Translations under genes and position numbers: made by a program
In this document: piece after piece, positions 21,351-24,412 of the stretch
Layout: the number at the start of each line of letters is the position of its first letter
Position numbering within the stretch: the first letter of the stretch is position 1
DNA from: Minisyncoccota bacterium
GTDB taxonomy: Bacteria > Patescibacteriota > Minisyncoccia > Phycocordibacterales > UBA9973
Assembly: GCA_035714785.1 (NCBI GenBank)
Contig: DASTLQ010000004.1
Span: forward strand, 48,248 to 112,247
DNA length: 64,000 bases
Direction: 5' to 3'
Notes under the pieces: model-generated
Databases searched by the model: none
What the model saw: the letters and a program-made list of their open reading frames with translations, nothing else
Told to the model about the DNA's origin: nothing

Positions 21351-22395
21351 ATACACAAGAACGTCATCCATACGGATAGGCGTTTTTGTTTGAACTTTGA
21401 CAATATGATTGAATAAAATTGAGAACGCCGACATTTCAAGTCGGCAAGCAAGTCTCAAGAAGTTTTGTAAATAAATAATCAGAGCTAGGAACAAGAAATT
21501 AAAACACAAAAACAATACTGTTTTTTGTTTTGTTTCGTTCCACTGTCAATTTTTTAAAATGACAGCCTAACTTTTAGTTAGAGTTTGATCCTAGCTCAGG
21601 ATGAACGCTGGCGGCGTGGCTAAGGCATGCAAGTCGAACGAATCAGTCCCATGAATGGATGAAAGAAGTTTTGAGTAGCAATACAAGAGACAGATGGATT
21701 TCTGGATTGGGTTTGCTGGTTAGTGGCGAACGAGGTAGTAATACATAGGAACTTCCCCCAGAGTCGTGAATAATCCGGAGAAATCCGGACTAATACACGA
21801 TGGTCTCTTCCGCCAATTGGCGGAAGAGTAAAGTTTTAACGCTCTGGGAAAGGCCTGTGCGATATCAGCTAGTTGGTAGGGTAATGGCCTACCAAGGCTA
21901 TGACGTCTAGGGGAGCTGAGAGGCTGACCCCCACCGATGGAACTGAGACACGGTCCATACACCTACGGGTGGCTGCAGTCAAGAACCTTCCACAATGGAC
22001 GAAAGTCTGATGGAGCGACGCCGCGTGATTGATGAAGTCCCTTTGGGACGTAAAGATCTTTTATGAGGGAAGAAGTTTATTGACGGTACCTCATGAATAA
22101 GAGGCTCCTAATCTCGTGCCAGCAGGAGCGGTAATACGAGAGCCTCGAGCGTTATCCGGAATTATTGGGCGTAAAGGGTGCGTAGGTTGTTCTGTTAGTC
22201 TTTCGTTAAATCCTTGGGCTTAACCCAAGAACCGCGGAAGAAACGGCAGGACTTGAAAGTGCGAGAGGCGTACGGAACTCATGGTGTAGGGGTGAAATCC
22301 GTTGATATCATGGGGAACACCGAAGGCGAAAGCAGTACGCTGGCGCATATTTGACACTGAAGCACGAAAGCGTGGGTAGCGAATGGGATTAGATA

Positions 22396-23436
22396 ATCCC
22401 GTCACCGCATTACAATAGTGACGAAGGTGTCTCTTTTTTGTGGCGACACAAGATTGCAATCTAGCTATATCGGTGAAACTCCATACAATATGAAATTTAC
22501 TGATTTCGTATGGACAACCCCGAGGGAAGTTTGATATTTATATCAAACCCCGTAGAGACTATGAATTTGAGAAAAGATAGTAGGAGTTATTAACATTAAT
22601 AAATATGAAAATAACACCTTTGTCAAAAAATGTTCGAGACATCATTCTCGGGTCACTTTTGGGAGATGGCTCTTTGGCCATAAATCCAAAATACAAAAGT
22701 CCTCGATTTTCTTTCAGGCATTCCGTTAAACAAAAGGAATATTTCTTTTGGAAGATGGACATGTTAAAAGAAATTTCAGGTGAATCTTGTTATTGGCTTC
22801 AAGGTAGTGAAAAAAAGCCAGATGGTTGGGGAACGGCCAAATACCGTTTTCAGAGCAGGGCATTGGCTTGTTTGACTGAAATTTATAATCTAACTCATCA
22901 CAGAGTTTCAGGTACTAAAGTTCGGGTAACAAGAAAATGGCTAAATCAATTGTCTCCTTTGTCGCTTGCGATATGGTGGCAAGATGATGGATCCCTTGTA
23001 TCTGATTCCCGCCAGGGAGTGATTTGTACGGATGGTTTTTCCTTTGAAGAAGTGGAAATCATTCATCAATATTTTAGAAAAGTTTGGAATATTGAAACAA
23101 AAATTGGCCGAGTTTCAAATCAAGATAAGTGGAGGATTTGGATTCGATCTTCTGAGGAACTAAAAAAATTCCTCAGGATTATAATTCCGCATGTGTATAC
23201 AAAAAGCATGCTTTATAAAATACTCCTCATCTATAAAGACTCTCAAGTTCAAGAACGCTGGATATCTGAGTTAATTTCTTTAGGAAATTTTTCTGAAAAA
23301 GAAATTAGAGAAGTTCTAGAAAATAGAATTTCAAGAAAGCTCAGATAAAGATATAGTCCGGACTGTATGGCAACATACAGAGGTAAACAGAAATGTTTTA
23401 CCCTTCATAATTTAATTATGAAAGTAACAAAATCAA
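22396..23436 (+). mobile_element. intron (probably group I) inserted in 16S rRNA after GGGATTAGATA, carrying a homing-endonuclease ORF
   Basis: It breaks the universally conserved GGATTAGATACCCTGGTAGTCC region. The boundaries are approximate, to within a few nt. Confidence 0.7.
22605..23348 (+). CDS. double-motif LAGLIDADG homing endonuclease (intron-encoded)
   Basis: Two LAGLIDADG motifs, ILGSLLGDGSL and AIWWQDDGSL, in a 247-aa ORF lying entirely within the 16S intron. Confidence 0.85.
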   Translation: MKITPLSKNVRDIILGSLLGDGSLAINPKYKSPRFSFRHSVKQKEYFFWKMDMLKEISGESCYWLQGSEKKPDGWGTAKYRFQSRALACLTEIYNLTHHRVSGTKVRVTRKWLNQLSPLSLAIWWQDDGSLVSDSRQGVICTDGFSFEEVEIIHQYFRKVWNIETKIGRVSNQDKWRIWIRSSEELKKFLRIIIPHVYTKSMLYKILLIYKDSQVQERWISELISLGNFSEKEIREVLENRISRKLR

Positions 23437-24412
23437 CCCCAGTAGTCCACGCCCTAAACGATCTTCTCTCGGTTTTCGGAGTATCGACCCTCTGAGAGCC
23501 TTAGCTAACGCGTTAAGAGAAGCGCCTGGGAAGTACGGCCGCAAGGCTAAAACTCAAAGGAATAGACGGGGACTTGCACAAGCAGTGGATTATGTGGTTT
23601 AATTCGATGGTAAACGAAGAACCTTACCAGGGTTAGAAATCCTATTGAAAGGTCTAGGAAACTAGATCCCTCGCAAGACTGTAGGACAGGTGATGCATGG
23701 CCGTCGTCAGTTCGTGGTTTGAATTGTACCCTTAAGTGGGCTAACGAACGCAACCCTCGTTGTGTGTTACAAGTGTCACACGAGACTGCCCCCACCAAAG
23801 CGCACGAAGCGCGAAAATTTTTTCGCAATAACTTCGCGAATTTTGGTGGGGGAGGAAGGAGAGGATGACGCCAGGTCAGCATGTCCCTTTGATACCCTGG
23901 GCTACACACATAATACAATGGCCGTTACAACGCGCAGCGACGAGGCGACTCTGAGCTAATCGTCTAAAAGTGGCCTAAGTTCGGATTGGAGTCTGCAACT
24001 CGACTCCATGAAGTTGGAATTGCTAGTAATCGCGGGTCAGCTAAACCGCGGTGAATACGTTCTCAAGTCTTGTACTCACCGCCCGTCAATTCAAGGGAGC
24101 CGGGAGTACCCGAAGGCTCTGCGTTCGCAGGGACTACGGTAAGCTCGGTGACAGGGAATAAGTCGTAACAAGGCACGGCTAGCGGAAGCTGGTCGTGGAA
24201 TAATTCAATTTGAAAATCTTCTTTTCTGCTTTATGCGGGAAAGAATTATTGAGTCGATATTGTACAGCTCAATTGACTGTACAATGGACAATGATTTCAG
24301 TCCTAAAAGGAATCTGACATGAGGCAAAGACCCAAGTTAAGGAACGAAACAAAACAAAGGACAGTAAGAAAAAGCTCGCTAATGGCGAGCTTTTTCTGTT
24401 ATAATTTTAGAC

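Follow-up and report, generated by a model that had tools for sequence, protein, structure and literature searches.

How is a 16S ribosomal RNA (rRNA) obtained from a gene whose conserved 790 loop is interrupted by about 1 kb of group I intron, when the last nucleotide of that intron is an A and not the usual G? The question is raised by a locus in a stretch of 64,000 nucleotides (nt) from contig DASTLQ010000004.1 (assembly GCA_035714785.1), here called the window, to which all positions refer. With good confidence, the locus is a single, separately transcribed 16S gene of a Patescibacteria-type bacterium, interrupted between Escherichia coli positions U793 and A794 by a mobile group I intron with a gene for a LAGLIDADG homing enzyme, and enlarged by two lineage-variable helix extensions. 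The coordinates of all features are collected in Table 1.

Interruption of the 16S rRNA gene by a group I intron

An Rfam scan of the whole window recovered the gene end to end on the bacterial small subunit (SSU) rRNA model (positions 1-1533), with a score far above the threshold of 50 bits and with high posterior probabilities along its full length. The gene had been placed at 21575-24200 by the initial annotation; it is present there, and its ends are corrected to those given in Table 1. The match covers 2638 nt for a model of 1533 positions, the excess coming from three segments in helix 6, the 790 loop and helix 40, and the gene is made up of two exons, one intron and two expansions.

The insert in the 790 loop lies, as first described, inside the conserved block and is about 1.04 kb long, as seen from the junction sequence and the SSU alignment. 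The junctions read ...GGGAUUAGAU(A) / AUCCCGUC ... AAAAUCA / (A)CCCCAGUAGUCC inside the GGATTAGATACCC...GTAGTCC block, and the DNA across both borders is ...GCGAAUGGGAUUAGAUA AUCCCGUCACC ... GUAACAAAAUCAA CCCCAGUAGUCCACGCC. Since the universal block is recovered when GGGAUUAGAU(A) is joined to (A)CCCCAGUAGUCC, the interruption of the gene stands: the SSU model leaves the insert unaligned instead of running contiguously through it, and the LAGLIDADG open reading frame (ORF) lies inside the 16S gene, not outside the rRNA.

Related loci were gathered from species-representative genomes by a search with the endonuclease alignment (80 loci), from a metagenome scan (2) and from look-ups of close homologues (10), and 78 clean introns were extracted from them. 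The metagenome scan used the single endonuclease protein, and the close relatives came from exact-protein look-ups. In nearly all of these loci the insert stands between GGATTAGAT and ACC..GTAGTCC of a 16S gene. A chimeric assembly or a dead rRNA pseudogene is scarcely credible as an explanation of the locus. The sequence is probably derived from a metagenome and rRNA regions misassemble easily, but the junctions are identical to the nucleotide in about 90 independent assemblies from different projects, the SSU match is of full length with high posterior probabilities, and the gene is flanked by ordinary housekeeping genes (SecA, GyrA, IF-2 and RNase J).

The borders in the window are ambiguous by 1 nt (A). 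Canonical borders (exon ...GGAUUAGAU / intron ... G / ACC..., that is U/...G/A) occur at exactly the same place in 51 of the 78 homologous introns, which fixes the site as S793, and the end of exon 1 at U793 follows from the P1 pairing together with these introns. The insert is thus the one formerly delimited as 22396-23436, shifted by one A to the left. The intron splits the 790 loop between U793 and A794. Its internal guide pairs in P1 with the end of exon 1 (A790-U, G791-C, A792-U and a U793·G wobble) and in P10 with the ACC of exon 2 (A794-U, C795-G and C796-G). GGUGUC is found in 77 of the 78 introns, and as the partners are invariant, P1 and P10 are supported by complementarity and conservation and not by covariation. 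A pairing of GGUGUC with GAGACU of the R element, proposed by RNAalifold, was treated as alternative or inactive because neither segment varies and P7 requires the R element.

By its core helices, which follow each other in canonical order and are backed by covariation, the insert is an intron of group I. The model Intron_gpI (RF00028) matches on either side of the ORF, at 23272-23380 (35.8 bits, E = 3e-7) and at 22410-22780 (22.4 bits, E = 3e-3). The Rfam alignment identifies the R element GUAGAGACUA at 22552-61 and the S element AAGAUAUAGUCC at 23348-59. The guanosine-binding site in P7, formed by GUAGAGACUAU (22552-62) and AAGAUAUAGUCC (23348-59), aligns to R and S of the model and is invariant in the homologues. 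Pairing was counted in a 57-sequence alignment of the 5' domain of the intron. In PX, P2.1, P3, P4 and P6 together, 95.4% of the cells are paired, against 81.2% with shuffled partners and 39-52% with slid partners, and two-sided changes are seen in 275 cells, against 85 in the shuffles. RNAalifold recovers P2.1, P4 and P6 independently. P5 shows evident compensatory changes; it was judged by eye, as was part of PX, because MAFFT rows such as that of the window are shifted by one column at the intron start and at P5. The P9 stem of 7 base pairs (bp), capped by a GNRA loop, persists across 50 different stem sequences in 75 of 78 introns, and that of P9.1 across 25 in 33 of 34.

The hairpin PX joins exon and intron, pairing exon bases 783-788 with intron bases +2 to +7. 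The upper end of 16S helix 24 is imitated in this way, with the intron in place of the distant 3' strand, and the two sides of PX vary together across hosts (AAGG/CCUU, ACGG/CCGU, GAAGAGG/CCUCUUC). The column pairs 4-41 and 5-40 hold UG 16, AU 15, CG 5 and UA 5, and GC 25 and AU 17, respectively. These column counts were used in place of a 7-mer complementarity test, which tolerated G·U pairs and did not discriminate. Since the loop of PX holds the 5' strand of P1, PX would alternate with P1 or make an H-type pseudoknot with it.

Table 1. Features of the 16S rRNA locus in the window (nt = nucleotides, bp = base pairs, ORF = open reading frame, SSU = small subunit)
Feature	Position	Strand	Basis
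Sigma-70-like promoter candidate, TTGACT ... TATAAT/TAATAT	21324-21352	+	Consensus scan, 9/12 matches; a pattern match only
Complete bacterial 16S (SSU) rRNA gene	21573-24210	+	Rfam RF00177 (SSU_rRNA_bacteria), 1233.7 bits, model 1-1533
16S exon 1, 3' end at E. coli U793 (...GGGAUUAGAU)	21573-22394	+	SSU alignment
Helix 6 expansion, 67 nt against 10 in the model, no ORF	21648-21714	+	Rfam alignment
PX exon-intron hairpin, exon UGGGAU (22384-22389) and intron AUCCCG (22396-22401)	22384-22401	+	Covaries with the host exon
Group I intron, site S793, 1041 nt, last nucleotide A23435	22395-23435	+	Intron_gpI partial matches, covariation-backed helices, about 78 homologous introns at the same site
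P2 hairpin (CGUCAC ... GUGACG)	22400-22423	+	Seen in the sequence; homologues differ in stem sequence, pairing kept
Internal guide GGUGUCU	22426-22432	+	7/7 complementary to ligated exons AGAU/ACC
P2.1 hairpin with GNRA loop (UUUUGUG-GCGA-CACAAGA)	22436-22453	+	8 pairs, each with two-sided changes in 11-32 sequences
Catalytic core, 5' part (P3, P4, P5, P6/P6a, R element, P7 5' strand)	22465-22580	+	Covariation and Rfam alignment
P3	22465-68 / 22577-80	+	
P4	22470-73 / 22520-23	+	
P5	22480-86 / 22508-14	+	
P6/P6a	22524-51	+	
R element and P7 5' strand	22552-62	+	
Intron ORF, 247-aa double-motif LAGLIDADG_2 homing endonuclease	22605-23348	+	Pfam PF03161, E = 1.1e-37
S element / P7 3' strand AUAGUCC (23353-59), J7/9 GGA (23360-62), P9 with GCAA loop (23363-80)	23349-23380	+	Rfam alignment
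Peripheral hairpins P9.1 (conserved CAGAAAUG loop) and P9.2	23382-23424	+	Folding
Intron 3' tail UAACAAAAUCA; U23433-C23434 pair with G23361-A23362 (P9.0), A23435 at the omega position	23425-23435	+	Conservation and complementarity
16S exon 2, 5' end at E. coli A794 (ACCCCAGUAGUCC...)	23436-24210	+	SSU alignment
Helix 40 expansion, 60 nt against 10-12 in most relatives, one long hairpin, no ORF	23791-23850	+	Rfam alignment, folding
Intrinsic-terminator-like hairpin, about 157 nt past the 16S 3' end	24367-24397	+	14-bp stem and T run

The terminal A and the proposed removal of the intron

Several observations weigh against this reading of the insert as a splicing group I intron. Both partial matches to Intron_gpI stay under the curated 50-bit threshold, as is expected of a model interrupted by a 744-nt ORF. 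With 4-5 bp, P1 is short, and covariation offers no test of P1 and P10, whose partners do not vary. PX encloses the 5' splice site and would compete or form a pseudoknot with P1, and a P8 stem was looked for around the ORF, where none was clear. The intron of the window ends ...AAAAUCA/ACCCC (...GUAACAAAAUCA/A), thus in A23435 and not in the terminal G known as omega-G, and no G occurs within 11 nt of the 3' junction, the last one standing 11 nt upstream. Omega-G is near-universal in group I introns and normally required for exon ligation, without being strictly defining.

No border with a terminal G was found among all shifts that keep GAUACCCC. G23424 was rejected as omega, as 11 extra nt would then stay in the 790 loop. 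An altered guanosine-binding pair that would compensate for the A was rejected as well, the G-C pair of P7 being identical in A-ending and G-ending introns.

The terminal A is shared with many relatives. Among the 78 introns 51 end in G, 26 in UCA and one in AUA, so that 27 of 78 end in A. Introns of the latter kind include those of loci L001, L003, L056, L058, L059, L065-L067, L070, L072-L076, L078, L080-L083 and L087-L092. UCA is conserved in the 26 introns while the neighbouring tail bases vary. Just ahead of the terminal nucleotide, two bases complement J7/9 as expected for P9.0, with UC opposite GGA or GAC and AU or UU opposite GAU, AAU or AAC. This complementarity is found in 54 of 72 introns against 32.8 ± 3.6 after shuffling, with none of 2000 shuffles as high, a figure that is inflated by the kinship of the sequences. 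Of the 27 introns ending in A, 26-27 have intact core motifs, as do 48-51 of the 51 ending in G, and the ORFs are of full length in both groups. On a neighbour-joining tree of the endonucleases the omega state switches between A and G at least five times while core and ORF stay intact, and near sisters differ at their 3' ends (L085 with ...AAAACG/, L082 and L083 with ...AAAAUCA/). Because of the invariance of UCA, the complementarity in P9.0, the intact core, the full ORFs and the switching between A and G, the A-ending state does not look like decay.

A conserved GUAACA motif is present between P9.2 and the 3' splice site at 23424-23429 and at about 25 loci, in the subfamily that is extended by P9.1 and P9.2. 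A pairing partner for this motif was sought in the P2 loop and in the region after P3', and none was conserved there.

Judged from the sequences, self-splicing with the terminal A is most likely. The precursor RNA would adopt the group I ribozyme fold, and the GGUGUCU guide would clasp the end of exon 1 (AGAU, with the U·G wobble) in P1. Held by the G-C pair of P7, a free guanosine would cut 3' of U793. The same guide would line up exon 2 (ACC) in P10, P9.0 (GA:UC) would put the last intron nucleotide into the active site, and exon ligation would restore GGAUUAGAUACCCC. Having A instead of G at its end, the intron is expected to pass through the second step more slowly or with the aid of a protein.

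That the insert is kept unspliced in the mature 16S rRNA is highly improbable. The missing omega-G would suit such a fate, and a group I intron in the 23S gene of Simkania is reported as unspliced. Here, however, the insert would split the 790 loop, a universally conserved element located at the subunit interface and the P site, and the strong conservation of the ribozyme core, the guide and P9.0 would be pointless in an RNA that never splices.

There is reportedly one natural precedent for splicing with a terminal A, the intron Cbu.L1917 in the 23S gene of Coxiella burnetii, which Raghavan and colleagues are said to have described in 2007 as ending in A and self-splicing. As in that case, a group I intron with a terminal A sits in a single-copy bacterial rRNA gene. 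Unlike Cbu.L1917, which is one element in the 23S gene of one species, the intron of the window is in the 16S gene and at another site, and its A-ending state is recurrent in a large family (27 of 78) and interconverts with G.

It is rather unlikely, though it deserves to be taken seriously, that full self-splicing fails for want of omega-G, and that the intron either needs protein help, from a host factor or from its own LAGLIDADG product in the role of a maturase, or is removed by nucleases, which would leave a two-piece, base-paired 16S rRNA. The strict conservation of UCA/A, and the covariation of the two bases before the A with J7/9 in the manner of P9.0 before a normal omega-G, suggest instead that the RNA still positions that phosphate in the active site. 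At least five switches between A and G, with no loss of core or ORF, and the reported self-splicing of Cbu.L1917 also speak against a failure of the ribozyme. It would be in keeping with such a failure that omega is A in the window and in 27 of 78 relatives, that nothing obvious in the RNA compensates for it, the guanosine-binding pair of P7 being unchanged, and that some LAGLIDADG proteins of organellar introns are maturases. Bacteria are known to have intervening sequences by which rRNA is fragmented, and such sequences are suggested for the Candidate Phyla Radiation (CPR) in a survey of its rRNA insertions (PMC11270868).

We tentatively propose, giving it a little less than an even chance, that group I introns include a sizeable natural class, represented at S793 by 27 of the 78 introns sampled and spread over several host lineages, whose members end in A and yet splice or are otherwise excised with precision, keep the ordinary G-C guanosine site and switch repeatedly between A and G. 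The A state of this class would be tied to the GA:UC form of P9.0 and mostly also to the P9.1/P9.2 extension with the conserved GUAACA tail. If this is true, the exception in Coxiella would turn into a general and evolvable way of using the 3' splice site in rRNA genes that are essential and single-copy, and the terminal A might delay or control the making of ribosomes in these bacteria, which grow slowly. Should the A-ending introns splice efficiently, a near-absolute rule of group I chemistry would be relaxed, and the sister introns with A or G would form a natural series for the selection of the 3' splice site.

Homing endonuclease, distribution and known systems

The ORF of the intron encodes a double-motif LAGLIDADG endonuclease, in agreement with the initial annotation. 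Its match to PF03161 (LAGLIDADG_2) scores 130 bits against a cut-off of 25. When 18 homologues are aligned, neither the two motifs, ILGSLLGDGS and LAIWWQDDGS, nor the acidic residues D21, D127 and D128 vary. The ORF occupies the position of P8, between the 3' strand of P3 (22577-80) and J8/7, and its stop codon lies 5 nt ahead of the 3' strand of P7. At E ≤ 0.001, a protein database yields 1038 homologues, one of them 100% identical; the next best (84-87%) come from short metagenomic contigs, and the closest named one (79%) is encoded by a Candidatus Campbellbacteria genome. The monomeric two-motif enzyme presumably cuts the intron-less 16S gene at the same conserved site, with GGGATTAGATACCCCAGTAGTCC as a candidate target, and would thereby spread the intron by homing.

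The nearest solved structure by sequence is I-SceI, to which the similarity is weak (E = 5e-5). As in the 'omega' intron of the yeast mitochondrial large subunit (LSU) rRNA, which encodes I-SceI, a monomeric two-motif enzyme of the LAGLIDADG_2 type is found inside a group I intron of an rRNA gene. The likeness to I-SceI is distant and limited to the C-terminal half, and the rRNA, the site and the host differ.

About 80 public genomes, almost all of them from Patescibacteria, share this family of intron and enzyme at the same site. The closest homologues of the intron, the enzyme and the 16S gene are from Patescibacteria genomes. Among the fetched loci, the closest 16S exons are 80-88% identical and come from Patescibacteria or from groundwater contigs; the values are 87.6% for L083 and 85% for a Candidatus Campbellbacteria genome (L042). 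The Gemmatales and deltaproteobacterial loci reach 68-70%. A Patescibacteria affinity of the host is a reasonable reading of these sequences. The features of the locus had been called hallmarks of Patescibacteria. They are indeed typical, as seen from the closest homologues and from published frequencies: according to passages of the survey, 48% of CPR 16S genes carry insertions of at least 100 bp, against 1.1% in other bacteria (PMC11270868), and unlinked rRNA genes are common in Patescibacteria (10.1101/705046). They are not exclusive, as the same family of intron and endonuclease occupies the same 16S site in the Gemmatales locus L021.

L021 lies on a 1.27-Mb contig (JBEPZY010000001.1, about positions 2772-3780). 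The locus has a GC content of 57.5%, and its 16S exons are about 70% identical to those of the window. The same family of intron and endonuclease is also present at this site in L041, from a genome labelled Deltaproteobacteria. A second, more downstream 16S insertion, near the 3' minor domain, was seen in L083 (2942-3297), L090 (3288-3722) and L001 (about 4425-5317). A LAGLIDADG_1 gene was called within it in L083 and L090; the 16S gene of the window is without an insertion there.

It is correct that a LAGLIDADG-encoding group I intron in a Patescibacteria 16S gene is of an already documented kind and ordinary for the phylum. Brown and colleagues are said to have reported in 2015 insertion sequences and group I introns with LAGLIDADG genes in CPR rRNA genes. 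Group I introns with homing endonuclease genes were reportedly also found, in a 2012 study of a gammaproteobacterial host, in conserved primer-binding regions of the 16S gene; the intron of the window resembles these in its endonuclease gene and in its position in a primer region, and differs in its host. In passages of the CPR survey, 35% of the 16S insertions are given as group I (Tsurumaki et al. 2024, PMC11270868, citing an earlier study), LAGLIDADG_2 and LAGLIDADG_3 are reported at the 16S sites '16IS5' and '16IS10', and another CPR enzyme, I-ShaI, is shown to cut its own insertion site (PMC11270868). The element of the window agrees with those described in these passages in its single-copy 16S gene, its position in a conserved region, its group-I-like RNA (RF00028), its LAGLIDADG_2 ORF and its phylum. 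S793 is probably one of the numbered sites of the survey. The passages of the survey on CPR insertions do not mention the omega nucleotide, and measured against them the A-ending subclass is the sole point that goes beyond the literature on these introns.

The intron sits where the widely used 16S primers 785F and 806R bind and adds 1 kb to the 16S gene, and organisms of this kind would therefore be missed or mis-sized by amplicon surveys and by rRNA-finding software. For annotation, the gain is one member of a widespread intron family whose borders with the exons are exactly placed and whose helices are mapped one by one.

Helix expansions and genomic setting

Helix 6 and helix 40 are each extended by an ORF-less insertion that varies between lineages. 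Only the one in helix 40 had been listed by the initial annotation, as an insertion of about 55 nt near position 1130; it is real and self-complementary, but measures 60 nt and belongs to the loop of helix 40 (E. coli about 1166-1170). There, 52 nt stand against 3 at Rfam model position of about 1158. With its flanks (23786-23856, 71 nt) the segment forms a single hairpin of -35.2 kcal/mol (z = -5.9). Counted between the anchors GAGACUGCC and GGAGGAAGG, expansions of helix 40 reach 38-222 nt in many relatives in which the region could be located, often with a common ...AAAGCGCA... start. The expansion of helix 6 had been overlooked; relatives have between 16 and more than 400 nt in this region, and in the window the single-sequence fold of the 87 nt between its anchors is not distinctive (z = -1.5).

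Both expansions may be retained segments or may be cut out in the manner of the intervening sequences processed by RNase III. They resemble the latter in being ORF-less, long-stemmed, placed at hairpin tips and variable in length among relatives. Classic intervening sequences are mostly found in 23S rRNA (helices 25 and 45), unlike the expansions of the window, which are known from DNA and may equally be retained. Short ORF-less insertions at the tips of stem-loops are likewise described in passages of the CPR survey; as the survey counts insertions of at least 100 bp, expansions of 50-60 nt such as those in helix 6 and helix 40 fall below its limit.

The 16S gene is unlinked, as had been noted from the start. 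No 23S (LSU) or 5S rRNA gene scored above threshold in the Rfam scan of the 64-kb window, and the remaining RNA genes are transfer RNA (tRNA) genes at 47.9-48.4 kb and 56.8 kb, the nearest about 24 kb off. Upstream, a gene for a PKD and peptidoglycan-binding protein ends at 21309; downstream, a gene for a Ddl-like ATP-grasp protein starts at 24413. Because of the promoter-like site, the terminator-like hairpin and the protein-coding neighbours, the 16S gene appears to be a separate transcription unit on an ordinary chromosome. Other genes in the window encode GuaA, RNase J, SecA, GyrA, IF-2, ClpB and TypA.

The terminator-like hairpin is strong and symmetric, with A and T runs flanking its stem, and would fit a monocistronic 16S gene. 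The upstream neighbour (18775-21309) encodes a protein of 844 amino acids that is predicted to be secreted and has two internally repeated blocks of PKD domains and two peptidoglycan-binding domains. Four of the tRNA genes (Leu-TAG, Lys-CTT, Leu-TAA and Cys-GCA) form a cluster at 47945-48367 on the minus strand. An ORF at 47180-48052 on the same strand overlaps the first tRNA of this cluster, and its 5' end is probably over-called.

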